Notes: generated from the sequence alone by a model not told the origin. Shown: positions 13,573-64,000, counted from the stretch's first letter. The stretch: 64,000 bases of DNA from Candidatus Parvarchaeota archaeon (GCA_017608385.1 JAFCFZ010000004.1:2253-66252), one strand, 5' to 3'. Translations and numbers: made by a program.

Positions 13573-14073
13573 ATGGATTGTCTATTTTGCAACATTGTTT
13601 CAGGAAAAGTTCCTAGTTTGAAGTTATTTGAAGATGATTTATTTCTAGCAATTTTGGATATAAAGCCTGGAAATCCTGGGCACTTCATTGTTTTTCCTAA
13701 AAAACATATACCCTTTCTTACAGAGATGGAACCAAAACAAAGGGGAGTTCTTTTTAACATAGCAACAGAAATTGGCAAGAGAATGGTTTCAATGGTAGAA
13801 GCTGAAGGATTTAATATTGTTTATTCGGCAGGAACTGTTGCTGGTCAAATAACCCCCCATATGCTTGTTCATGTTATTCCAAGATTCAAAGATGATAAGG
13901 TCGATATAAAATGGGAACCAGTTCAAGTTTCTGAAGAAATGTACAAGAAATTAATATCTGCTTTTTCTGGAACAGAAGAGAAGAAAGAGGAAAAGAAGGA
14001 AGAACCACCAGAGGAAAAAAATGAATTTGATGAGCTTCCTCAGATTAAAAGAAGATCACCAAGATATTGGTAA
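13573..14073 (+). CDS. HIT-family (histidine triad) protein with a degenerate triad and a K/E-rich C-terminal tail
   Basis: N-terminal CLFCNIV zinc motif. The triad region reads PHMLVHVIPR, i.e. H-x-L-x-H rather than H-x-H-x-H. The tail is EEKKEEKKEEPPEE. Confidence 0.7.
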   Translation: MDCLFCNIVSGKVPSLKLFEDDLFLAILDIKPGNPGHFIVFPKKHIPFLTEMEPKQRGVLFNIATEIGKRMVSMVEAEGFNIVYSAGTVAGQITPHMLVHVIPRFKDDKVDIKWEPVQVSEEMYKKLISAFSGTEEKKEEKKEEPPEEKNEFDELPQIKRRSPRYW

Positions 14074-14871
14074 GAAATAAACTCCTGCCCAAGTAACTAT
14101 CAAGCTTATTAGGAATGCAGGAAGAAATGGCACACCTTCTTTTATCTTTACTTTTTTAATTTTCATTTTATTTATTTTTTTGATATCTCCTATAGTTAGT
14201 CCCTCTCCTCTTTTAGGGATGCCTTTGATGTCTTCAATTAACCAATCCCCTTCAGTTAATTTTGAAGGATGCACTCCCTTGGTAAAACAAACTTCTTCCG
14301 CTTGTTTGAAAAATGGAATTCCGAAACCTGCAAGAAAGGTTAAAGGAATTAGAAGGGAAATAGAAGTAGGTAAATCTTTTAATAGAACCATAAAAATAAT
14401 TCCCAAGAAAGCACCAATTATCAGCATCAATTTCCTTATTTTTTCAATTCCGCCCATTACCAATCCCTTTCCAATTGTAAAGAGAACAGTGTAAAGGGTT
14501 CCAAATATGATTAAATTCATGAAAAAATTAATGAAAAAACCCATGCCTAACAAACCCATTTCTCTTGAAGGAAAAAATCCTAATAACCATGCAGCAGCTA
14601 TCATTAGTTTAACATCTCCTCCACCCCACTGGCCTGTTTTATACAGTAAATAGGAGAAAATACCAAATAATAATGAAACAAGTGCAGGAATAGTTAATAC
14701 AGAAATAAAGAGTTCGTCAGGAAATAAGGAAGCAGACCATAGAATTCGATATAAAACACCTAATCCAATTAATGAGTAACTTAAATAGTCAGGAACCTCT
14801 CTTGTTTTTAAGTCAGATATGGATGCAAGTGAAAAACCTATTAATGACACAAAAAATAGCATTTCTTCCAT
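14056..14871 (-). CDS. A24-family prepilin/preflagellin peptidase (PibD/FlaK-like)
   Basis: Polytopic protein with catalytic Asp motifs SDLKTREVPD and GGGDVKLM. It overlaps the HIT gene 3' end convergently by 18 nt. Confidence 0.8.
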   Translation of the reverse strand: MEEMLFFVSLIGFSLASISDLKTREVPDYLSYSLIGLGVLYRILWSASLFPDELFISVLTIPALVSLLFGIFSYLLYKTGQWGGGDVKLMIAAAWLLGFFPSREMGLLGMGFFINFFMNLIIFGTLYTVLFTIGKGLVMGGIEKIRKLMLIIGAFLGIIFMVLLKDLPTSISLLIPLTFLAGFGIPFFKQAEEVCFTKGVHPSKLTEGDWLIEDIKGIPKRGEGLTIGDIKKINKMKIKKVKIKEGVPFLPAFLISLIVTWAGVYFLPISW

Positions 14872-49841: not shown

Positions 49842-50027
49842 ATGGAAATATTGATTCAAGGTAAAAAAAGAAAGGTAAAGAATAGTGTTCTTTCTGAAAT
49901 AATGAATGAAATAAATGTTAATCCTGAAGAATTTTTGGTTGTTAGAGATAATGAATTAATTACATCTGATACTAAAATAAATAATGGAGATTCTTTAGAA
50001 TTACTTTCTATTGTTTCTGGTGGTTAA
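49842..50027 (+). CDS. samp: Small archaeal modifier protein (ThiS/MoaD-fold ubiquitin-like sulfur carrier) with a C-terminal GG
   Basis: 61 aa beta-grasp-like protein ending ...IVSGG. Its stop directly abuts the ncsA ATG. Confidence 0.75.
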   Translation: MEILIQGKKRKVKNSVLSEIMNEINVNPEEFLVVRDNELITSDTKINNGDSLELLSIVSGG

Positions 50028-50954
50028 ATGAAATGCTCTATATGTAAAGAAAAAGCAGTAATTGAATTGAATTATTTGAAAAAGGCATTTTGTAAGGAAC
50101 ATTTTATTGATTCTTTTGAGGAAAGAGTAAAAAAGCATGTAGAAAAAAACAAATTAGTTGATAAGAACGATAAAATAGTTGTAGGGGTTTCTGGAGGAAA
50201 AGATTCTTTGACAATGCTTTATCTTCTGAATAAATGGTATCCTGGTCAAGTCTCTGCATTGACTGTAGATGAAGGAATAAAAAATTATAGGGAACACACA
50301 ATCAAAATTGTTGAGAAATTTGTAAAAGAATGGGGAATTAATTATAAAAAATTAAGTTTCAAAGAAGGAATTGGTTTTTCTTTGGATGAAATATGCAAAA
50401 AATTAGAAGGAATTCCTTGTTCATATTGTGGTGTTTTTAGAAGATATTTGTTGAATAAAGGAGCTAGAGAGATGAAAGCTACAAAAATAGCAATAGGACA
50501 CAATCTTGATGATGAAGCACAATCAATAATGATGAATCTTTTTCAACATGGTCTTCAAAGATTTGTTAGGATGGGTCCCCTTTCAGGAGTCGTAGACAAT
50601 GAGAAATTTATTAGAAGAATAAAACCATTGAGAGAGATCACAGAAAAGGAAACCAGGGCATATTTTTTCATTAAAAAATTTCCACATGATATTTGGGAGT
50701 GTCCATATATGCAATTTGCTTTTAGACACAATATTAGAAAGATGTTGAATGATTATGAAAAGGACAATTCAGGAACAAAGGCAAATATTGTAAAATCATA
50801 TGATAGTTTTATTAAAAAATTCAAAAAAACAAAATATAATATTGTTTTTTGTGAAAAATGTAAAGAACCAACATCCTCAAATATTTGTAGAGCATGTATA
50901 ATAAAGGAGGAATTTTATGAAAGAACTCGCAACAAAGGAAAAACAAAGAACTGA
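50028..50954 (+). CDS. ncsA: NcsA/Ncs6/TtuA-family tRNA 2-thiolation PP-loop ATPase
   Basis: N-terminal zinc finger CSICKE...CKEHF, PP-loop GVSGGKDS, and C-terminal Cys pairs CEKCKEP..CRAC. Confidence 0.85.
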   Translation: MKCSICKEKAVIELNYLKKAFCKEHFIDSFEERVKKHVEKNKLVDKNDKIVVGVSGGKDSLTMLYLLNKWYPGQVSALTVDEGIKNYREHTIKIVEKFVKEWGINYKKLSFKEGIGFSLDEICKKLEGIPCSYCGVFRRYLLNKGAREMKATKIAIGHNLDDEAQSIMMNLFQHGLQRFVRMGPLSGVVDNEKFIRRIKPLREITEKETRAYFFIKKFPHDIWECPYMQFAFRHNIRKMLNDYEKDNSGTKANIVKSYDSFIKKFKKTKYNIVFCEKCKEPTSSNICRACIIKEEFYERTRNKGKTKN

Positions 50955-54048: not shown

Positions 54049-54417
54049 CTATTCAAATACAACTAATATTCTATCATTGTCTTTTAAATAATACGAAAAT
54101 GGACTAATTTCATTACCATTGGCATAAAATGTCCAATTTCCTTGATCTAAACAAAGATTTCTCAAACAATAGATTTTATTGTCATATATTACAGGAGAAT
54201 AAGGATTTATGATACTTATTAATGAAGCATTTTCATTAACACTTATTGTTTCTTCAGGAAGTAAGTTTCCCATCTGAAACTGAAGAGTAACTGAAGCTTT
54301 GGTTTCTACAGTTCCAAAGAAGATGAATGCAGGAGCAATCATTAATAGAACTAAGATTAATGGTGTCCATTTTTTCCACGAGTCGTTCTTTTTCTTCTTA
54401 ATTACTGATTTTCTCAT
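54049..54417 (-). CDS. Hypothetical N-terminally anchored or secreted small protein
   Basis: Basic N-terminus plus a TM/signal segment, followed by a beta-rich domain with two Cys. Confidence 0.4.
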   Translation of the reverse strand: MRKSVIKKKKNDSWKKWTPLILVLLMIAPAFIFFGTVETKASVTLQFQMGNLLPEETISVNENASLISIINPYSPVIYDNKIYCLRNLCLDQGNWTFYANGNEISPFSYYLKDNDRILVVFE

Positions 54418-54526
54418 CTATTCTTCTTTGTTATTCACCCTTTAAAAATTTTAAATAGGAACATCTACTTTGAGAATTGAAAATATGTTTTAAGAAACTT
54501 TTAATAAATCACATTTTATTAGTCAA

Positions 54527-57367
54527 GTGATGAAAAAGATTCTTTTTATAGTATCAATTTTATTATTTACAATAGGTACTGCTAGGGCAGATATCTTCAC
54601 TCCATGGATTCAAGGGATATCATCATTTTTTTCAGATTACACCAATATTGCGATTGCATTGGCTTTATCTGTTGTGACAATGGCAGTTGCAAAAAAAGCA
54701 TTTGGATCTAGATATGGGGGTGGAGATAATAAGATACCAATAGCAATTGGAATTGCTGTTTTCATATTTTCAATGATTTATTTTCCCCAAACACCTGTTT
54801 CCGGTTATGTTAATGGGATCCTTTATACCCCAGGAACTGGTGGAATTGGAGTTCTTGGTGGACTTAATCTTGGAACTCTACCAGGATTGATTATATCCAT
54901 TATCTTTGTTATTGCAGTTTTTTGGGCTTGGAAAAATGGAAAATTTGAGAACAAAACTCATTGGCTTGTTTTTGTGGGGATGCTTGCAGCAACACTTATG
55001 GCATTTATATTTTCATATTTTAGAATCTATGTACTTTCAGGGGCTGCAGGTTTAGCGGCTGTTTTACTCTTCATTGCTTTCTTAATCCTTTTCATAAGGA
55101 ATATTGCAATGTCTGGTGTTAATTGGAGTAAGGCAGGTATTGGAAGATCTAAAGGAGGAGAAGATTCAATTGAAAAAGGAGATGGAAAAAGGGTGATGAG
55201 AAGGAATTTGAGGAACATGAGCAAATTGGATAAAAACATAGTAAAGATCATAAACATAAAAGACCAAAAACTCATACCTACTCTCAAAAGTTTAGCAAGT
55301 TTAATGGAATTTGCTAAGAAAGGAGTTCTTCCTGTAAAAGTAACAGGCGATGTTATGAGTGATTTAAAAAAACTAAATCTACTTTATTTAGGAACAACTA
55401 GGATATTTAAGATATTTTCTGAAGAAAAAAGATCTCGATATGCTGCTACTTCTGTAGTGTTAAAGAGAATAGCATTCAAAAGAGGAAATACAAGAAAACA
55501 AATGAAAGAAGGATTTTCAGCGTTGGAAAGATTACTCGATTCTAAAAATGTTGACTCAAAAACTAAAGAATATTTGAGAGCAATAAGAAATATTATGATA
55601 GGTGGAGGAATTAAGTTAAATGTTACCTTTAGTGTTGAAGGGGGAAGTCCAAGAGTAGAAGAGAAATCTATTATTAACTTTTTGAATGATAAGAGAATAA
55701 AGAAGAAGGTAGCTATATTCCCTATTGATGAGGGAGGTCTATCCAATCTTAGAGCGATATGGCATAACGTTGCAAATATGGTAGGTTTTAAACAACATGA
55801 AGAAGAATTGAGATTCCATTTAGATGCAGTTCAATCCAAAGTAGATCTTTCAAAGTTCGGTGTAACAAGTGAAGGACTGAAAAAAATTGCGGCAAAAAGA
55901 CCTACAGGTAAACCAGAAAGTGATTTGATGAGATCTGTTGTTGCTTTGTTCGCTTTGAAAACAAATTATTATGGAATGATAGCATATCCTTTTCACAGTT
56001 CACTTTACAAATATAGAAACAATCTTGTTACTTTAATCAAATTAATCAATGAAACTAAGAAAGCAAGAAAAATAGCTAAGAAATACAATAAGGAAATACC
56101 TGATTCAACTCAAATGGAACAGGCAATTGTTAAAATGGTTGTTCAAGAAGGACTTTACTTAGCTGATATATTCTCAATATTTTCAACTTTGTTTAATGAT
56201 GGAGAACTCAATGGTCTTTCAGTCCAAATGAGACAAGGGATGAATAGACTATATCAACGTTCTTTTAGTGGAGAACCGTTAGGTAGGGATGAGTTATTCA
56301 CTTCACTTAAAGGATTTGGATTATTTAGAAGAAAGTTTAGGGAAATGAGTTTTAAAGAAGTAAGAAAAATGGGATCTCCTAGGAGATATAGAGACACAGC
56401 ATATTACACTCTTTTCAAAAAAATAGAAGAGGGTTCAAAAAGAAAATTAGAAAGTCAAGCTCAAATTTTAGATCAAATTGCTGAAGAATTGAAAGCAAAT
56501 CCTGGAGTAAAATCTACTCCAAATGTTCAAGGTAAATGGGATAATTTGATAGGACAAATAAATAGGGAAGAGCAACTCATGCTAAAGTTAAATGAAGTTT
56601 TAAAACACTTTAAAGAGACTGACAAGAAAGAAGAATACCTTCTCAGAAAAATGTTAGGAGCTATCGAAAAAATTGAAGAACCTATTAAAGAATATTTTGA
56701 AGAGGAGGAAAAAACGGAAGAGGAAGAGAAAAAAATTGAGGAAAAAGAAGAAAAGATTGTTCATAAGATAGATGAATCATTTGCAATTCTAAACAAGAGT
56801 ATGCCGGATGTTAAAAATTTAACATCCCTAACATCATATTATTTATGGCAAGCAGAGAATTATCGTAAAGGATATTCTAATTTTTTGAAAAATGCTCGTG
56901 AGATTGGTAAATTAGTGGGAAAAACATTCATGAAAGGAAATAAGGTAAAGCCAGGAATTAGTGAAGAACTCAAGAAAGCAATTAATGAAGCATTTAATGC
57001 ATTTAATAATTATTTGGAAACACAGAAGACAGTATCAAAGAAAAAGTCAGAATTTGGAAATGGATTAAGACAACTAGTTGAGACTGGTTTGGATCCTGAT
57101 GAACTTAAAGAAATCTCTAAGATTGTTAAGAGAAAAGAAAAGGATGGAAGTAAAACTACAAAAATAATAATTAGTATCCAGAAACTAGCTGAAAGGACTA
57201 GGAAAGAAGATGCTTTAGGTAAGAAAATTAAAAGTATAGTTGATAGGCAATTTCATTCATTACCTCATGCAAAACTCATGGAAAATGTTAAAGAAGCTAA
57301 TTGGACTAATATCATGAAGATGAGAGATTTGAGAAAAGCATTGAAGGAAGAATTGAAATCTAAATAA
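54527..57367 (+). CDS. Large (946 aa) membrane protein. It has a Sec signal peptide, a polytopic N-terminal domain (about 230 aa) and a long K/E-rich predicted coiled-coil tail
   Basis: MMKKILFIVSILLFTIGTARA-DIF signal peptide, then 4-5 TM helices, then about 700 aa of charged helical repeats (EEEEKTEEEEKKIEEKEEK). Confidence 0.55.
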   Translation: MMKKILFIVSILLFTIGTARADIFTPWIQGISSFFSDYTNIAIALALSVVTMAVAKKAFGSRYGGGDNKIPIAIGIAVFIFSMIYFPQTPVSGYVNGILYTPGTGGIGVLGGLNLGTLPGLIISIIFVIAVFWAWKNGKFENKTHWLVFVGMLAATLMAFIFSYFRIYVLSGAAGLAAVLLFIAFLILFIRNIAMSGVNWSKAGIGRSKGGEDSIEKGDGKRVMRRNLRNMSKLDKNIVKIINIKDQKLIPTLKSLASLMEFAKKGVLPVKVTGDVMSDLKKLNLLYLGTTRIFKIFSEEKRSRYAATSVVLKRIAFKRGNTRKQMKEGFSALERLLDSKNVDSKTKEYLRAIRNIMIGGGIKLNVTFSVEGGSPRVEEKSIINFLNDKRIKKKVAIFPIDEGGLSNLRAIWHNVANMVGFKQHEEELRFHLDAVQSKVDLSKFGVTSEGLKKIAAKRPTGKPESDLMRSVVALFALKTNYYGMIAYPFHSSLYKYRNNLVTLIKLINETKKARKIAKKYNKEIPDSTQMEQAIVKMVVQEGLYLADIFSIFSTLFNDGELNGLSVQMRQGMNRLYQRSFSGEPLGRDELFTSLKGFGLFRRKFREMSFKEVRKMGSPRRYRDTAYYTLFKKIEEGSKRKLESQAQILDQIAEELKANPGVKSTPNVQGKWDNLIGQINREEQLMLKLNEVLKHFKETDKKEEYLLRKMLGAIEKIEEPIKEYFEEEEKTEEEEKKIEEKEEKIVHKIDESFAILNKSMPDVKNLTSLTSYYLWQAENYRKGYSNFLKNAREIGKLVGKTFMKGNKVKPGISEELKKAINEAFNAFNNYLETQKTVSKKKSEFGNGLRQLVETGLDPDELKEISKIVKRKEKDGSKTTKIIISIQKLAERTRKEDALGKKIKSIVDRQFHSLPHAKLMENVKEANWTNIMKMRDLRKALKEELKSK

Positions 57368-57418
57368 TTGATTAGTAATCTTTTTAATCTTCATTCTTTT
57401 ATATTAAAGTGATAAAAA

Positions 57419-57952
57419 ATGTCAGATAGTATGTTTGGGGGCGTTGTACAGACACTTCAAAATATGGGGTTTTTTGATGTGATTCTACCTTTTTTACTTA
57501 TATTTGCAGTGATTTATGGAGTTCTAGCAAGAGCTCAAATATTTGAAGATAGAAACGATATCAATGCAGTTATTGCATTTGTTATGGGAATGCTTGTTAT
57601 AGGGTCTTCTTGGGTTGTTGGAGTTTTAACCGGATTCTTACCTATAGTTGGTTTATTGTCTGTTGTTTTTTTAGGTGGGTTTATTCTATTTGCAATGTTT
57701 GCTGGAAATGCTGAAAATATTTATGATGGAAAAGCAAAATATGTTGCAGCTGCAGTTATTCTGGTTGTTTTTCCTTTAATTTTAGTTAATATGATTGCAC
57801 CAACTTTTTGGGGGGATATGACCAATGATTGGGCATTACCTTTTAGTATGGTTGATATGGGTGTGATGGTTGCAATGGTTTTAGTTATTGGAATTATGAT
57901 ATGGATTACTAAACCAAGTGGAGGCGATGGAGGAGGTAGTTCAAGTGATTGA
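57419..57952 (+). CDS. 4-TM membrane protein of an unknown family, tandem paralog 1
   Basis: LPFLLIFAVIYGVLARAQIFEDRNDINAVIAFVMGM is conserved with paralog 3. C-terminal G/S/D tail. Confidence 0.55.
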   Translation: MSDSMFGGVVQTLQNMGFFDVILPFLLIFAVIYGVLARAQIFEDRNDINAVIAFVMGMLVIGSSWVVGVLTGFLPIVGLLSVVFLGGFILFAMFAGNAENIYDGKAKYVAAAVILVVFPLILVNMIAPTFWGDMTNDWALPFSMVDMGVMVAMVLVIGIMIWITKPSGGDGGGSSSD

Positions 57953-58478
57953 AGGAATTTTCACTGCGATATGGCAAGGTTTTGCTTCTTTAACTCCCGC
58001 AGGAGTTTCTCCTGAATATTTTTGGCCAACATTCATACTTGTTTTTGCAATGGTTTACACTATCCTAGAAAAGGTCAAAGTTTTTGGAGATATTCAACAT
58101 GGAAATAAAAGAGGAATTTATCTCATAGTTGCATTGGTTTTTGCATATTTTACAGCGAGCTCTGCATTTGCAACATTAATTATTGCAAAGATGACACCAC
58201 AGTTAGGAATGGTGCTTGTTGCAATATTAGTATTTTTGATCATATTTACTTTCCTTTCCGGAGGAGATGATATGACTGGAGAAAAATATCCAAAATGGTT
58301 GTTGTGGGTGATGGTATTAATTGGTGTCGCTTGGGTATTTGGCTCAACATTTTTTGAAGTTACAGGAACATCATTCAGTACGGGATCGTTTGCTCTTTCA
58401 CAAGCTGATATGGGAATAATATTTGCATTGGGAATCTTTGGATTTGTCCTATGGTTCCTTTTTAAAGATAAGAATTGA
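57918..58478 (+). CDS. 4-TM membrane protein, tandem paralog 2. The start is possibly the GTG at 57945
   Basis: FILVFAMVYTILEKVKVFGD is conserved with paralogs 1 and 3. It overlaps the paralog-1 stop. Confidence 0.5.
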   Translation: MEAMEEVVQVIEGIFTAIWQGFASLTPAGVSPEYFWPTFILVFAMVYTILEKVKVFGDIQHGNKRGIYLIVALVFAYFTASSAFATLIIAKMTPQLGMVLVAILVFLIIFTFLSGGDDMTGEKYPKWLLWVMVLIGVAWVFGSTFFEVTGTSFSTGSFALSQADMGIIFALGIFGFVLWFLFKDKN

Positions 58479-58484
58479 TGAAAA

Positions 58485-59027
58485 ATGGCTGAACAAACAT
58501 TTTTAGAAGCAATTGGAATTTTCCAGTACTTTGGATTACAATATTTGCTAGTTCCCCTGTTAATTTTTGTTATGACTCTTGGAATTCTTCAAAAAACCAA
58601 GATGATAAGTGATAAACCAGATATTAATGCAGCCATAGGATTCTCATTTGCTTTTGTTATTGCTATGGTACCACAATTTGTTGATTTTCTTGCTTTTTTG
58701 ATGCCATTAATGATAGGATTCATTATGATATTGTTTGGAATAGGAATGATTTTTATGTTATTTGGAGCAAAATCAGACAATTTTTTTAATTTTTTCAAGA
58801 GCCCCGGAATAATCATTCTCACTATTGTTATTTTCATGATAATAGTATTCTATTCTATTTCGGATGTTTTTGGAGATCAAATTTCTTCATGGACTTCAGA
58901 TAATAGAACAACAGGAGGAATGGGTTCTGGAGTAGAGAGAATATTTAGTCCAGAAGTATTTGGAACAGTAATCTTCATTTCAGTTGCAGCTGTGGGAGTA
59001 TATATGATTAGTGCGCAGAAATCTTAA
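58485..59027 (+). CDS. 4-TM membrane protein, tandem paralog 3
   Basis: LVPLLIFVMTLGILQKTKMISDKPDINAAIGFSFAFVIA is conserved with paralog 1. Confidence 0.55.
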   Translation: MAEQTFLEAIGIFQYFGLQYLLVPLLIFVMTLGILQKTKMISDKPDINAAIGFSFAFVIAMVPQFVDFLAFLMPLMIGFIMILFGIGMIFMLFGAKSDNFFNFFKSPGIIILTIVIFMIIVFYSISDVFGDQISSWTSDNRTTGGMGSGVERIFSPEVFGTVIFISVAAVGVYMISAQKS

Positions 59028-59672
59028 TTATTCTTTTTTAGTCTTAGTTACTTCTTTTAATTCTTTGATACTATCTGTTAAAGTAGGAACCAATTTACTC
59101 ATAACCTTATCAAGAGCTTGCATTTCAATACTTACTTCTTGCATACTCTTTCCATATTCATCTACCTTAGCTGCCATAGTAGCTTCAATAGCATCAACTC
59201 TTTTTTTGAAGTCTTCAACTTTAGAATCTATTTTATCAATCTGTTTTTCAACCTTAGCTTTCCACTCTTCCATTATCACTAATTTTTCTTCAACATCAAT
59301 CCATTTTTCTTGAATTATTTGTTCAAGAATTCTTTCAATTTCCTCAACACTTCTATCTTTTACTTCCATGCCTGGAGCTGGTGCAAAATCTGGAGAAGCT
59401 CCAAAATCCATTGTTGGCATTGCTTGTTGAGGTTGTTGTGGTAAAGGTGGTAAAGCTGTTTCGGGATTTGGGTTAGAATTTGCAGCAGATTTTAATTCAG
59501 CTTGACTCATTGCATCTTTTATTTGTTGGAATTCATATCCTTCTGCTCTTAATTGATTAATAATTTGATCATTATTCATTCCTTGATTTCTAAGATCTAA
59601 AACCTCTTTTACAGGAACTTTTTTATGAGTTCCTTCATCCTTACCTCTTAGTCTATCTAAAATTCCCATCAA
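59028..59672 (-). CDS. Coiled-coil protein with an N-terminal helical domain and a P/Q-rich low-complexity linker
   Basis: N-terminus MMGILDRLRGK...; linker PNPETALPPLPQQPQQAMP; C-terminal heptad-rich half. Confidence 0.45.
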   Translation of the reverse strand: MMGILDRLRGKDEGTHKKVPVKEVLDLRNQGMNNDQIINQLRAEGYEFQQIKDAMSQAELKSAANSNPNPETALPPLPQQPQQAMPTMDFGASPDFAPAPGMEVKDRSVEEIERILEQIIQEKWIDVEEKLVIMEEWKAKVEKQIDKIDSKVEDFKKRVDAIEATMAAKVDEYGKSMQEVSIEMQALDKVMSKLVPTLTDSIKELKEVTKTKKE

Positions 59673-60040
59673 ACACGACCTATCTCTCTTCTAATCAATT
59701 CGACCGCTTCTTCCTTTGTTAAGAATCTTGTAGGGTCAAACAAGTTAATATATCTTTCTAACACTTTTATATCTTGGTTTCTTGCAACGTTTTGCATGTC
59801 CTTTATTAGGTTTCTTAGAGCACCTTCCATTTCCTTCATATTTCCTTTGAAAGAATTGGTTTCTTCTTGTAAATCAACAATCATTTCTTTTAGTTCTTTA
59901 GTTCTTTTTAATCCACTTTCATCAATTATCTTCATTTTCATAGATAATTGTTCATATCTCTCTTCTACAAGCCTTATCCGGTTAGTTAATTGAGTAACTT
60001 GCTGATATAGAACCTGAATATAGTTTTCCTGTTTTTCCAT
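59669..60040 (-). CDS. Small coiled-coil protein, translationally coupled to the downstream coiled-coil gene by an ATGA overlap
   Basis: 123 aa, helical and heptad-rich. It is divergent from the secretion ATPase. Confidence 0.45.
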   Translation of the reverse strand: MEKQENYIQVLYQQVTQLTNRIRLVEERYEQLSMKMKIIDESGLKRTKELKEMIVDLQEETNSFKGNMKEMEGALRNLIKDMQNVARNQDIKVLERYINLFDPTRFLTKEEAVELIRREIGRV

Positions 60041-60118
60041 TTATAATCCCCACATTTTTTAAATTGGCAGTAATTTATTCATATTAAAGGAGAATTTAAT
60101 ACTTTTCGTTGATGCGAA

Positions 60119-62401
60119 ATGCCCGAAACCAAAAAACCCTGTTCATATACAGTGGAAATTGAAGGAAACCAAAAGAATTTGGTAGTTAATTGTATTGGTT
60201 GTTTTTTATATCCTAGCATAGAGGATAACAAAGCATGTATGGAAAGAGTTGTGGACTATATAATAGCATCAGGTACGCCAACAAATGTTATTCTTTCAAG
60301 TAGCAGAAACATAATTTATCCTGTTGAACAAACAAGGATGTTGGTTGAAATTGCAAACCTCCATAAAAAATTTGTCAAAGAACAAAATGTTTTTGATATA
60401 AATTTAATATCTCCTCATGATAGAGAAGCTTTGCCAGAAAGATTAGCAACAATGAAGGAAATCGTTCTGAACAATTTGAGGGGAGATCCTATTGGTGCAT
60501 ATGTTCAAACTTTAAGAGAATTAAGAGAACAAAAAGCAAAACTGCCTTCTGCAACTCCAAAAGAAAGATCTAGTTTGGAAGCATTTATCAAAGTCTTGGT
60601 GAACATTCTCGAATCTATCGAAGGAACTTCTATCATTAAAAAAGCAATGCCAAAACTTCCTGGACACAAGATAGGAGATAGAGAAGTTTACAGAGATATA
60701 TTCAAGCCCTTGATAAAACCAAATTTTATGCTCACTCGTTTAATGGCTGAACCTCCAATAAAAGCACAAGAAATAGATTCTTACACTATTGGAGGCAAAA
60801 ATAAATCAGATGTTCTTATTTTCAAAGTTCCTGGAAAAATTCAATATCTTTACCATCTAAATCCTCCGGAATTCAAGTTAGATGAAGATGCATATGTTCT
60901 GTTAGATGAAGCAAGAAATGTTTTAGCAAAACATAAACCAGGAGAAAAAGAATTTGTTGACCCAAAAAGAGTCAGGGGTATATTTACAAACATTAGTAAG
61001 GATTTGTTAGAACAATTAGCAAATTCTAGAAGAATGAAGTTGAAGTATGATGAAATAGAAAAATTGGCTGAAATACTTGTTAGATTAACAGTTGGATTCG
61101 GTCTTATTGAAGTTCTTTTAGAAGATGAAAAGATTGAAGATATTTACATAAATGCACCCGTAGGAACTGAGAAAGTTTTCATAAAACATGCAGAATATGG
61201 AGAATGTTTTACTAATATTATTCCTAGTTTCACAGAGGCAGAAGCTTGGGCTTCAAGATTTCGTATGATTTCAGGAAGACCTTTGGATGAAGCTAATCCT
61301 GTTTTAGATGCTGAAATAATTACACCTACTGTTTTTTCAAGAGCCGCGGTTATTCAAAATCCAATAAGTCCAAAAGGACTTTCATTTGCATTTAGAAGAC
61401 ATAGAGCAAAGCCATGGACTCTTCCTTTGTTTATAAAACAAAAATATCTATCTCCCCTTTCTGCAGGATTACTTTCTTTCTTAGTTGATGGATCAAGATC
61501 TATCTTAGTTGCAGGAACAAGAGGAGCAGGTAAAACCAGTCTTTTGACAGCACTAATGGTTGAAATCATGAGAAAGTTCAGGGTGATTACAATAGAAGAT
61601 ACAATGGAATTACCAACTGAGTCATTCAAAGAAATAGGATATAATATATTACCACTGAAGGTTAGAAGTGCAATTGTTGGAAGTAAATCTGAAATGAGCG
61701 CATCAGATGGGATAAGAACTTCTTTACGTTTAGGAGATTCTTCTTTGATTATAGGTGAGGTCAGAAGTAAAGAAGCTGTTGCTCTGTATGAAGCAATGAG
61801 GATAGGAGCGTTGGCTAATGTGGTGGCAGGAACAATTCATGGAGATAGCCCATATGGTGTTTTTGATAGAGTAGTTAATGATTTGGGAGTTCCAAGAACA
61901 AGTTTTAAGGCAACAGATATTATAATTGTAGCTAATAAAATCAGAAGTCCAGATTTGCTTTCAGAGATGAGAAGAGTTATGAGTGTAACCGAAGTAAGAA
62001 AACATTGGGAAGATGATCCCGTTAGAGAAAAGGGATTTGAAAATTTAATGGAATACAATTCAAAAAAAGATATTTTAGAACCTTCCCGTAATTTGATGGA
62101 AGGAGAGAGTGAAGTTCTAAAATCAATTGGTTCTAGGGTAAAAGAGTGGATTGGTGACTGGGATAGGATATGGGATAATATTCAATTAAGAGCAGACATA
62201 AAGAGTATGATAGTGAAATATTCAGATGCAGATCCCTCTATTTTGGAGGCAAACTCTGTGGTCAGTTCCAATGATAAATTTCATATGATATTTGAACAAC
62301 TTTCAAAAGAAACAGGATATCCTGAGAGTGATAGGGTAAAAGCTGATTTTGAAGAATGGTTAAAAGCAAAGATAAAGAAAAAAAATGAAAAAAAGCTATG
62401 A
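60119..62401 (+). CDS. Type II/IV secretion-superfamily ATPase (FlaI/TadA/VirB11-like), atypically long at 760 aa
   Basis: Walker A VAGTRGAGKTSLL, Asp/Walker-B box RVITIEDTMEL, the conserved LRLGDSSLIIGEVRSKEA segment, and His box GTIHGDSP. The N-terminal extension before the ATPase core is about 450 aa. Confidence 0.8.
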   Translation: MPETKKPCSYTVEIEGNQKNLVVNCIGCFLYPSIEDNKACMERVVDYIIASGTPTNVILSSSRNIIYPVEQTRMLVEIANLHKKFVKEQNVFDINLISPHDREALPERLATMKEIVLNNLRGDPIGAYVQTLRELREQKAKLPSATPKERSSLEAFIKVLVNILESIEGTSIIKKAMPKLPGHKIGDREVYRDIFKPLIKPNFMLTRLMAEPPIKAQEIDSYTIGGKNKSDVLIFKVPGKIQYLYHLNPPEFKLDEDAYVLLDEARNVLAKHKPGEKEFVDPKRVRGIFTNISKDLLEQLANSRRMKLKYDEIEKLAEILVRLTVGFGLIEVLLEDEKIEDIYINAPVGTEKVFIKHAEYGECFTNIIPSFTEAEAWASRFRMISGRPLDEANPVLDAEIITPTVFSRAAVIQNPISPKGLSFAFRRHRAKPWTLPLFIKQKYLSPLSAGLLSFLVDGSRSILVAGTRGAGKTSLLTALMVEIMRKFRVITIEDTMELPTESFKEIGYNILPLKVRSAIVGSKSEMSASDGIRTSLRLGDSSLIIGEVRSKEAVALYEAMRIGALANVVAGTIHGDSPYGVFDRVVNDLGVPRTSFKATDIIIVANKIRSPDLLSEMRRVMSVTEVRKHWEDDPVREKGFENLMEYNSKKDILEPSRNLMEGESEVLKSIGSRVKEWIGDWDRIWDNIQLRADIKSMIVKYSDADPSILEANSVVSSNDKFHMIFEQLSKETGYPESDRVKADFEEWLKAKIKKKNEKKL

Positions 62402-64000
62402 TGAGATTTTTAATAAATATATAAAAGAAACTCCTACTAAGAAGCAGACAGTTAGTAGGGATTTTAAGTTATTTCTAAAAGATGAAAGAACTGGATTTAT
62501 GAAAAGATATGAATCTTTATGTAAATCCGCAGGGAAAATATTAATGGTCAGTATACCTGATGAAGAAAAGAAAAGGCTTCAAAATGCAATCAAACTCAAT
62601 GCCATGTCTGTAACTCCTGAAGAAATTGGTTCGTTGTCTCTTCTTGCTCTTTTAATGACAATAATGTTTACTGGAGTTGTTGCTGTTATCTTCTTCATGT
62701 TTAATTTATTAACTGGAGTAATGTCTTTGATTGTTTTGGGCTTAGGTCTAGCGGGTATTTTGATGTATGATAAAATACGTAAATATCCCATTGGTTTGAT
62801 AGAAACAAGAAGAATAAGGTCTTCAAATGAATTGGTCCTGTCTATATTGTACATTGTTTCTTATATGAGACACACTTCCAACTTAGAGGAAGCAATAAGA
62901 TTTGCTGCTTCTAATCTTGAAGGACCTCTCTCTAATGATTTTATCAAAATGATATGGGATATTCAAGCTAGAAAATATTCAGATATCCAAGACGCACTAA
63001 ATAATTATTTAATGAATTGGAAAGAATTCAATCCTGCATTTGTTGATGCAATGTATTTGATAAGAAGCACTCTGTATCAAGGAGATGAAGCAAATAGATT
63101 GGCTCTTTTAGATGAATCAGTCAATAGAATATTAGATGGTACATTTAGAAATATGGTAAATTATGCTTCTTCTTTAAGAAATCCTATTAACACAATTTAC
63201 ATGATGGGTATTGTTTTACCTGTTTTAGGAATGGTAATGTTTCCAATGGTTTCTACTTTTATGGCAGAATCAATAAGTACCGAAATTATGATAGTAGGTT
63301 ATAATATAATCCTCCCTCTCCTTGTTTTCTTGCTTGCAAAAAATATTCTCAAAAATAGACCATCTGGTTTTCCTTATGTTGATATATCTGGACATCCAGA
63401 AATTGCAAAGAGGCATTATTTTTACTTGGGAAAGAAACAATATCCTGCAATAATCCCAGCGATTATAGCTTTCTTAGTTATGGCAGGTCCTTTTATATTC
63501 CTTTTAATGATAACGACTGAAATATCTGAAATACAGATTTATTTGAGCATTCCAATTACTTTTGCTGCTGCTGCTGCAATTTATGTATACACTCGCTTGA
63601 CAACAACAAAACCAATGAGTATTCTCAAAAAAGTCTATTCTGTTGAAAATGATTTTTCTCATGCAATTTTTCAATTAGGAACTATTTTAGTTCAAGAAGT
63701 TCCTGTCGAGCAGGCATTTATTAAAGTAGCTTCATCAATGAAGGGTTCTGAAACATCTGATTTTTTGAGAAGAGTAGTTAATAATATTAGAAGTGTAGGT
63801 TTAAGCGCTTCAGATGCTCTCTTTCACAAAGAATATGGTGCTGTTTTGATGTTCCCTTCTCCAATAATCAAAAGTACAATGAAAGTTTTAGTAGATACAT
63901 CTAAAAAGAGTTTGAAAGATGCAGGAATAGCTCTTATTTTTGTTTCAAAATATCTCAGAAGCTTGAAAGAAATAGATGATAGGGTTAATGATTCTCTTGA
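62385..64000 (+). CDS. FlaJ/TadC/GspF-like membrane platform protein (3' end runs off the window)
   Basis: The ORF is not in the supplied track because it has no stop inside the window. ATG at 62385 (MKKSYDEIF...). The layout is a cytoplasmic N-terminus, a TM pair, a ~150-aa cytoplasmic helical domain, then more TM helices. This is the T2SSF-like arrangement, immediately downstream of the ATPase. Confidence 0.6.
   Translation, partial: MKKSYDEIFNKYIKETPTKKQTVSRDFKLFLKDERTGFMKRYESLCKSAGKILMVSIPDEEKKRLQNAIKLNAMSVTPEEIGSLSLLALLMTIMFTGVVAVIFFMFNLLTGVMSLIVLGLGLAGILMYDKIRKYPIGLIETRRIRSSNELVLSILYIVSYMRHTSNLEEAIRFAASNLEGPLSNDFIKMIWDIQARKYSDIQDALNNYLMNWKEFNPAFVDAMYLIRSTLYQGDEANRLALLDESVNRILDGTFRNMVNYASSLRNPINTIYMMGIVLPVLGMVMFPMVSTFMAESISTEIMIVGYNIILPLLVFLLAKNILKNRPSGFPYVDISGHPEIAKRHYFYLGKKQYPAIIPAIIAFLVMAGPFIFLLMITTEISEIQIYLSIPITFAAAAAIYVYTRLTTTKPMSILKKVYSVENDFSHAIFQLGTILVQEVPVEQAFIKVASSMKGSETSDFLRRVVNNIRSVGLSASDALFHKEYGAVLMFPSPIIKSTMKVLVDTSKKSLKDAGIALIFVSKYLRSLKEIDDRVNDSL

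Follow-up and report, generated by a model that had tools for sequence, protein, structure and literature searches.

Introduction

The region at nucleotides 54049-64000 of a 64,000-nt stretch from Candidatus Parvarchaeota archaeon (GCA_017608385.1, JAFCFZ010000004.1:2253-66252; this whole stretch is hereafter called the window) raises the question of what a type IV filament (TFF) motor is doing in a locus that seems to have no filament subunits. An earlier reading made from the sequence alone (the sequence-only reading) saw here a secretion-type ATPase and a platform protein with no pilin gene beside them, and proposed a possibly undescribed apparatus. DPANN archaea depend on physical contact with their hosts, with pili-like appendages observed where the two cells meet, and to our knowledge no DPANN pilus machine has been dissected. 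According to our analysis, the region likely belongs to a conserved type IV pilus biogenesis cluster shared by DPANN archaea (Woesearchaeota, Pacearchaeota, and Aenigmatarchaeota), of which it makes up the promoter-proximal half. This reading is carried by the identity of the ATPase, the platform, and the prepilin peptidase, by the conserved synteny of the locus, and by arrays of genes with class III-like N-termini in related loci. The pilin genes of this particular genome almost certainly lie past the platform gene, beyond nt 64000, as the relatives indicate.

Assembly ATPase, Platform Protein, and Prepilin Peptidase

The motor is encoded by two overlapping genes at the end of the window, and the peptidase by a distant gene:

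60119-62401, plus strand: FlaI/GspE2/TadA-type assembly ATPase, 760 aa
62385-64000, plus strand: FlaJ/TadC-type platform protein, partial, with 538 of ~688 aa present
14056-14871, minus strand: class III signal (prepilin) peptidase of the Peptidase_A24 family, encoded in trans

The ATPase matched Pfam T2SSE at 1.1e-17 and carries the Walker A and B motifs, the Asp box, and the His box of the secretion superfamily; the four core motifs that the sequence-only reading had quoted were found at residues 466, 488, 536, and 572. The NCBIfam models for FlaI and TadA were tied (both ~125 bits, ~1e-36), far under their equivalog cut-offs (550 bits for FlaI). The best match among PDB sequences was Archaeoglobus fulgidus GspE (2OAP, 1.8e-27, query residues 315-625), followed by CpaF and then by FlaI. 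A structure predicted with AlphaFold2 on 75 orthologs (pLDDT 83) gave the same picture in Foldseek, with 2OAP at E 4e-26 and a target-normalised TM-score of 0.79, and FlaI at 0.75. Both A. fulgidus GspE and FlaI superpose as whole proteins on approximately residues 210-760 of the model. Since the first ~200 residues are left uncovered by these ~500-aa proteins, the N-terminal extension amounts to ~200 aa and not to the ~450 aa estimated earlier; the ATPase as modelled is composed of a core (~210-760) and, ahead of it, ~200 extra residues that form an alpha/beta unit and helices. Such N-terminal elaborations are common among archaeal TFF ATPases and are subsystem-specific (preprint 10.64898/2026.04.22.720090).

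More than 5900 homologs of the ATPase were scored, and the full-length identity within metagenome-assembled genomes (MAGs) of DPANN archaea was 45-82%. Among the best 120 homologs, with full-length identities of 82-53%, those that are named belong to Nanoarchaeota, Nanoarchaeia, Woesearchaeota, or Pacearchaeota. Three homologs (P0026, P0065, and P0103) are 1092-1281 aa long and contain intein domains: PF14890 (Intein_splicing) was present in all three, and PF14528 (LAGLIDADG_3) in P0026 and P0103. This points to an invasion of the pilus ATPase by inteins in some DPANN lineages.

The assignment of the second gene to the FlaJ/TadC/GspF platform family (T2SSF), which had been made earlier, was upheld through its orthologs. 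The copy in the window gave a weak match to Pfam T2SSF, below the cut-off (2.2e-4), and none among PDB sequences; 17 of 43 members of its family matched T2SSF, at best with 7e-11. The available part aligns at 77% identity with residues 1-538 of the 688-aa ortholog in the closest relative (locus L002), and the locus has a single platform gene of ~688 aa. A scan of metagenome contigs with the platform protein yielded one relative, at 44% identity. The third gene matched Peptidase_A24 with E 1.6e-12 (48.2 bits; cut-off, 26.5), which confirms the presence of a prepilin peptidase 40 kb away from the locus.

Related Loci and Class III-Like Genes Downstream of the Platform

Iterative hidden Markov model (HMM) searches were performed with the window proteins against all open reading frames (ORFs) of 83 related loci, which together with the window make up a set of 84. 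A scan of GTDB species genomes with the ATPase found 80 loci, at 45-61% identity, in MAGs of Woesearchaeota, Pacearchaeota, and Aenigmatarchaeota. The gene order is nearly universal: three to four genes for small transmembrane (TM) proteins on the plus strand, two genes for relatives of the 214-aa and 123-aa coiled-coil proteins on the minus strand, and then the ATPase and the platform on the plus strand, the latter being present in 72 of the 84 loci. Gene by gene, locus L002 follows the same order as the window, with identities of 82% for the ATPase, 77% for the platform, 72-84% for the coiled-coil proteins, and 49-58% for the TM proteins. The ortholog of the locus in Ca. Tiddalikarchaeum (L006) has the same gene order. 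In loci of a Pacearchaeota type (L030, L033-L035, L044, L047, L049, L050, L058, L061, L066, L068, L069, L071, L076, L079, and L081), the full-length platform gene is inverted and convergent with the ATPase gene, and class III-like genes still follow it on the plus strand.

The platform ORF that begins at 62385 is still open at nt 64000. The window thus stops ~150 codons short of the end of this gene, so that missing pilins within the window say little about the locus. When every ORF of 28 aa or more in the 64-kb window was scanned with a regular expression, no convincing class III N-terminus appeared, and in this sense the earlier statement that there is no pilin ORF holds for the window; it does not hold as a property of the locus, where the lack of pilins is an artefact of truncation at the window edge.

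The related loci continue beyond this point. In L002, the platform gene is followed by 11 genes, at least six of which begin with a short basic leader and [KR][GA], followed by a hydrophobic stretch:

MKKG|DIPLVGII, 506 aa
MSKG|IVIDQTMLLI, 52 aa
MKA|QELPLSTIVVV, 105 aa
MKKA|AVQLGVETLV, 56 aa
MRG|AISLGVGTIV, 52 aa
VKG|LFSFELHQII, 226 aa

N-termini were called class III-like by a FlaFind-like rule, which itself fixes position -2 as K or R. In the 83 related loci taken together, 259 of the 487 plus-strand genes located 1.5-10 kb downstream of the ATPase (53%) satisfied this rule, against 22 of 868 elsewhere in these loci (2.5%; odds ratio 44, Fisher p 2.5e-111). Position -1 of the candidates is occupied by G in 75% and by A in 16%, and the median leader has 7 residues. 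When at least 6 kb of downstream sequence was available (n = 50), 41 loci had at least one class III-like gene and 36 had at least three, with a median of 6.5 per locus. Typical downstream arrays consist of tandem genes for 100-160-aa proteins starting with MK[AS]|QGLP. Every close relative with sequence past the platform carries genes with class III-type N-termini directly downstream of it, and the view of the locus as a pilin-less and possibly undescribed apparatus is therefore abandoned here. The sequence-only reading had looked to the same place for canonical accessory genes as well; class III-type N-termini were found there in the relatives, but no Fla, Aap, or Ups accessory genes.

Large Cys-rich proteins (300-770 aa) with a class III-like or anchor segment at the N-terminus recur between the platform gene and the arrays of small pilin-like genes. 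Examples are L002:10855-13349 and the d506 family, which occurs in 24 loci. These proteins have no Pfam match and are candidates for tip adhesins or minor pilins.

The class III-like proteins need not build a long adhesive pilus. They could instead be assembled into a short pseudopilus or serve in DNA uptake, protein secretion, bindosome-like display of binding proteins, or a host-penetrating conduit. The sizes of many downstream class III proteins in the relatives, ~50-60 aa for the very short ones and 300-770 aa for the very large, Cys-rich ones, are in favor of such a use, as are TFF machines with known alternative roles (the bindosome and the Ups/Ced context; preprint 10.64898/2026.04.22.720090) and the pili-like appendages that were seen reaching into host cells (PMC7906910). 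However, the Pfam annotation of the neighbors in L002, L004, and L006 revealed no genes for DNA translocation, ABC transporters, or substrate-binding proteins, and tandem arrays of ~100-160-aa pilin-like genes that have a K[AS]|QGLP motif in common are what major-pilin families typically show. We consider a use of this kind unlikely.

Conserved Accessory Module

Upstream of the ATPase, the locus contains the following features:

54049-54417, minus strand: 122-aa protein with one hydrophobic segment at residues 19-37 (N-terminal signal or anchor)
54527-57367, plus strand: 946-aa membrane protein with a signal-like N-terminus, ~5 TM helices, and a K/E-rich tail
57419-57952, plus strand: first small polytopic paralog, 177 aa, with an N-terminal amphipathic helix and ~5 TM helices
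57918-58478, plus strand: second paralog, 186 aa as counted from a GTG start (the true start may be later)
58485-59027, plus strand: third paralog, 180 aa
59028-59672, minus strand: cytoplasmic 214-aa protein with a C-terminal coiled coil and without TM helices
59669-60040, minus strand: cytoplasmic 123-aa coiled-coil protein without TM helices, first gene of the divergent two-gene unit
60041-60118: AT-rich divergent intergenic spacer of 78 nt between the coiled-coil unit and the ATPase-platform unit

According to the gaps and overlaps, three transcription units can be distinguished: the 946-aa gene together with those of the small paralogs, the minus-strand pair (with a 4-nt overlap between its genes), and the ATPase-platform unit, in which the platform start overlaps the ATPase stop by 17 nt. 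Promoters in both directions are presumed within the 78-nt spacer. The GC content is even along the window (0.26-0.35), so there is nothing that hints at a foreign island.

Synteny in related genomes, which the sequence-only reading had proposed as a check, turned out to be deep, with the accessory module standing next to the ATPase in 62-73 loci. The TM-paralog family has 194 members and is present in 63 of the 84 loci (62 relatives and the window), with three copies in 43 loci, four in 12, and two in 7. The family of the 214-aa protein was found in 72 of the 84 loci and that of the 123-aa protein in 73, the gene of the latter being always directly upstream of the ATPase gene and divergent from it.

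The three TM proteins of the window are distant from each other (pairwise identity 23-26%; second versus first, 23%, E 1e-7; third versus first, 26%, E 4e-10), and all of them recover the same 194-member family. Their earlier description as tandem paralogs is thus retained, but each of them appears to have ~5 TM helices and an N-terminal amphipathic helix instead of the four TM helices assigned earlier. In comparisons across loci, the best match was the copy in the same position in 73%, 53%, and 63% of cases, against 33% expected, which indicates that the triplication is old and that the three paralogs are distinct subunits. This suggests that they may constitute an ancient heterotrimeric or hetero-oligomeric unit. 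In the arrays of 43 loci, the first TM helix of the three paralogs carries a near-invariant LPFLL..F...F..L.K motif. No relatives of these proteins were found in Pfam, among PDB sequences, or among PDB folds. Their origin as fragments of a TadC-like platform was ruled out (hhalign probability 2.8%), and so was their identity with a known transporter or fold, as no significant profile or fold match was obtained; an unrelated transporter family, the other possibility that the sequence-only reading had named for them, was not encountered, nor was any other known family.

The two coiled-coil proteins correspond to their earlier description: both are encoded on the minus strand, lack TM helices, and diverge from the ATPase. 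The 214-aa protein consists of a small N-terminal three-helix domain, a P/Q-rich linker, and the C-terminal coiled coil; a few members of its family show weak matches of the N-terminal domain to RecX_HTH1/DUF7626. The 123-aa protein gave generic coiled-coil matches only in Pfam and NCBIfam, and the similarity between the two families is weak and at the level of coiled coils (hhalign probability 77%). Beyond generic coiled-coil matches, no relatives of either protein were found in Pfam, among PDB sequences, or among PDB folds. A search for specific homology to FlaC/D/E, ArlX, DUF7310, or PDB entries yielded nothing more than such generic matches, those to DUF7310 being marginal.

The 946-aa protein does have the signal-like N-terminus, the membrane part (~5 TM helices), and the K/E-rich tail that had been described, with a tail of ~750 aa in place of ~700 aa. 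It is rich in K (14%) and E (9.5%), and the tail is basic. The tail is probably cytoplasmic by the positive-inside rule, as the TM helices before it are odd in number and basic residues cluster there. The protein has no significant Pfam family, with one sub-threshold match to FixS. It is shared only with L002 (28% identity over 747 aa), and its status as a component conserved across the relatives was ruled out; the 946-aa protein is a lineage-specific component. Shorter analogues (450-560 aa) occupy the same position in L004, L009, L010, and L011. In this closest lineage, the gene before the TM array encodes 3-7 N-terminal TM helices and a charged tail, with a very variable length (450-946 aa). 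The membrane domain of some of the analogues gave weak matches to the HMM of the TM paralogs (E ~1e-4), while the match of the 946-aa protein itself was not significant (E 0.22); the gene before the array may represent a fourth, fused paralog. Homologs of the 122-aa protein were found only in L004, L009, L010, and L011, at the same edge of the locus, and the homolog in L004 has a weak match to DUF4430. This protein marks the left edge of the locus, and its membership in the system is uncertain.

It could be argued that the upstream genes (the 946-aa gene, the TM trio, and the coiled-coil pair) are unrelated neighbors and that the pilus system includes only the ATPase and the platform. The 946-aa and 122-aa proteins are kept only in the closest relatives, and four loci (L022, L025, L055, and L086) have a long ATPase and a platform without TM-paralog or coiled-coil genes nearby; in L025 and L086, the platform follows the ATPase at a distance of ~6 kb. 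The TM paralogs and the coiled-coil genes, however, keep their position and orientation by the ATPase in the 62-73 loci mentioned above, which span several DPANN orders and ATPase identities down to ~45%, far beyond neutral synteny. As a statement about all of these genes, this explanation is very unlikely; it likely applies to the 122-aa protein and possibly to the 946-aa protein.

Outside of the locus, at 49842-50954, a 61-aa ThiS/SAMP-like protein with a C-terminal GG is encoded, and the gene immediately downstream specifies a 308-aa PP-loop protein with CxxC pairs, which by eye is NcsA/TtcA-like. The two genes may represent a ubiquitin-like sulfur-carrier/tRNA thiolation pair unrelated to the pilus locus.

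Unlikely Readings: Pilin-Less Apparatus or Archaellum

The proposal from which this work departed, namely a pilin-less and undescribed membrane-spanning apparatus for secretion or cell-cell attachment around a TFF-type motor, could draw on the 64-kb window without a class III ORF and on accessory proteins without known relatives, and an archaeal system of an ATPase and membrane proteins without pilins (subclade 4D) is known (PMC4858521). Against it stand the end of the window inside the platform gene and the class III-like arrays right after the platform in relatives with the same gene order. In addition, an A24 prepilin peptidase is retained in the genome, which implies that it has substrates. 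We regard the pilin-less apparatus as highly improbable. A divergent archaellum locus serving motility is hardly credible: some ATPase orthologs do carry the JGI name "flagellar protein FlaI," and NCBIfam FlaI is among the top matches of the ATPase, but its score is tied with that of TadA far below the cut-off, Arch_flagellin matched only one of 142 candidate pilins (E 0.009), an archaellum was stated to be absent from the Ca. Tiddalikarchaeum genome, which does have a type IV pilus (PMC8561730), and, in agreement with the earlier claim that archaellum accessory genes are missing, Pfam profiles found no FlaH/KaiC, FlaF/G, FlaCDE/X, or archaellin domains in the window, L002, L004, or L006, nor did NCBIfam profiles reveal archaellum accessory domains in the window.

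Proposed Function of the Probable Type IV Pilus Cluster

Under the preferred reading of the region as part of a type IV pilus cluster, a hexameric FlaI/GspE2-type ATPase would dock on the single FlaJ/TadC-type platform. The A24 peptidase (14056-14871) would first cleave the short leaders of the class III-signal pilins, and the motor would then pull the processed pilins out of the membrane and polymerise them into a surface filament. These steps follow from what is established for ATPases of the FlaI/GspE type that work with FlaJ/TadC platforms on subunits processed by A24 peptidases. The pilin genes downstream of the platform would form tandem arrays (~50-160 aa) accompanied by larger Cys-rich pilin-like proteins. 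The TM trio, the coiled-coil pair, and, in this lineage, the 946-aa protein would belong to the basal complex as components specific to this system. The platform may be surrounded or anchored by the three distinct TM subunits, and the coiled-coil proteins may contact the ~200-aa extra N-terminal domain of the ATPase. The filament would most plausibly serve to attach the archaeon to a host cell or to a surface, a role that we infer from DPANN biology (PMC7906910, PMC6142677).

Several points weigh against this reading. No class III-like gene was found downstream in nine of the 50 related loci with enough flanking sequence, and no meaningful match to a pilin or archaellin family of Pfam was obtained for any of the 142 candidate pilins. 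Their putative assignment as pilins draws on N-terminal features, tandem arrangement, and context; the lack of a Pfam family is in line with the "dark matter" pilins of DPANN islands (PMC6393860). The downstream pilin genes of this particular genome are extrapolated from the relatives, as the window ends at nt 64000, and it is tight and deep synteny that suggests a place in the basal complex for the TM trio and the coiled-coil pair. For loci of this type, the filament itself is a prediction from genes.

A further-reaching idea is that the TM trio, the coiled-coil pair, and the ATPase's extra N-terminal domain, joined in this lineage by the protein with the 750-aa tail, form a DPANN-specific basal complex that turns the pilus motor to a new function. 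We offer this as speculation, with little expectation that it will prove correct. If true, the result might be a filament machine that penetrates the host or bridges the cytoplasms, or else a device for regulated extension and retraction, and either would underlie episymbiotic attachment across Woesearchaeota, Pacearchaeota, and Aenigmatarchaeota.

This type of locus occurs in very many MAGs, with full-length ATPase orthologs in 80 GTDB species genomes, and includes a fixed set of uncharacterised partner proteins. If the partners are parts of the machine, they are concrete targets to approach by cryo-electron tomography, proteomics, and structure prediction in those few DPANN systems that can be cultivated.

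Comparison with Known Systems

The earlier placement of the region among type IV filament loci, with a gene content other than that of the archaellum or the Aap, Ups, and Tad/Epd systems, agrees with our results. The archaellum is excluded, since ArlH, ArlF/G, ArlCDE or ArlX, and archaellins were not found in the window or in L002, L004, and L006, and since the FlaI score is below the threshold. The Aap and Ups pili of Sulfolobales are not indicated either: at the Pfam level, no recognizable accessory domains (AapX, UpsX, or Aap/Ups pilins) were found in the window or its relatives.

The bacterial Tad/Flp pilus and the Methanococcus Epd pilus (system 1) resemble the locus in that CpaF/TadA is the next-best match of the ATPase and that some of the class III proteins downstream in the relatives are Flp-like in size (~50-60 aa). 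In contrast to Tad/Epd, there is one long platform gene instead of two (TadB and TadC, or EpdJ and EpdK), no dedicated peptidase is located in the locus, the enzyme being encoded 40 kb away, and no TadZ/MinD-type ATPase was seen. The halobacterial subclade 4F with arCOG07564 (PMC4858521) shares the combination of a TFF locus with an intracellular coiled-coil protein, and nanoarchaeal members with pilins not identified have been reported for the 4F ATPase clade (PMC4858521). Nevertheless, homology to its coiled-coil protein did not emerge, as the coiled-coil proteins of our locus gave only marginal matches to DUF7310, and CetZ, CBS, or SMC neighbors are absent here. At the level of single proteins, A. 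fulgidus GspE (2OAP) and Sulfolobus FlaI (4IHQ/4II7) come closest in sequence and fold to the ATPase core and its canonical N-terminal domains, whereas the ATPase of the window has ~200 additional N-terminal residues and ~20% identity to them.

Of the archaeal TFF systems, the description of system 2 (clade 2), with the Haloferax volcanii PilB-PilC loci as its example (PMC4858521; preprint 10.64898/2026.04.22.720090), fits the locus best. Its members combine an ATPase with an extended N-terminus and a single platform with several pilins, extra membrane proteins, and large adhesin-like proteins. The ATPase/platform modules of this system can work with pilins encoded elsewhere, and loci with pilins in trans are known in haloarchaea, e.g., H. 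volcanii PilB3 (PMC4858521). The differences are that the Pfam scan of our candidates revealed no PilA/Pilin_N-type pilin and that the accessory proteins of the locus have no detectable relatives. Both clade 2 and clade 4F have been reported to include "nanoarchaea" (PMC4858521; preprint 10.64898/2026.04.22.720090).

The closest parallel within DPANN archaea is found in their type IV pilus islands, which according to Fig. 2A of Makarova, Wolf & Koonin 2019 (PMC6393860) contain FlaI, TadC, and "dark matter" proteins with signal peptides that were read as diverse pilins. Our locus is of the same kind, with a FlaI-like ATPase, a TadC-like platform, and, in its relatives, unannotated signal-peptide proteins around them that are read as divergent pilins. 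Pili-like appendages are carried by ultrasmall episymbionts (PMC7906910), and the Ca. Tiddalikarchaeum ortholog of the locus (L006) was reported as "Pilus type IV (FlaIJK)" (PMC8561730). DPANN type IV pili are therefore already known. The running text of both reports (PMC6393860 and PMC8561730) does not describe the TM trio, the coiled-coil pair, or the N-terminal extension of the ATPase, and the conserved accessory module of the TM trio and the coiled-coil pair looks undescribed. Overall, the locus is a conserved, little-studied variant of a known machine rather than a new apparatus.

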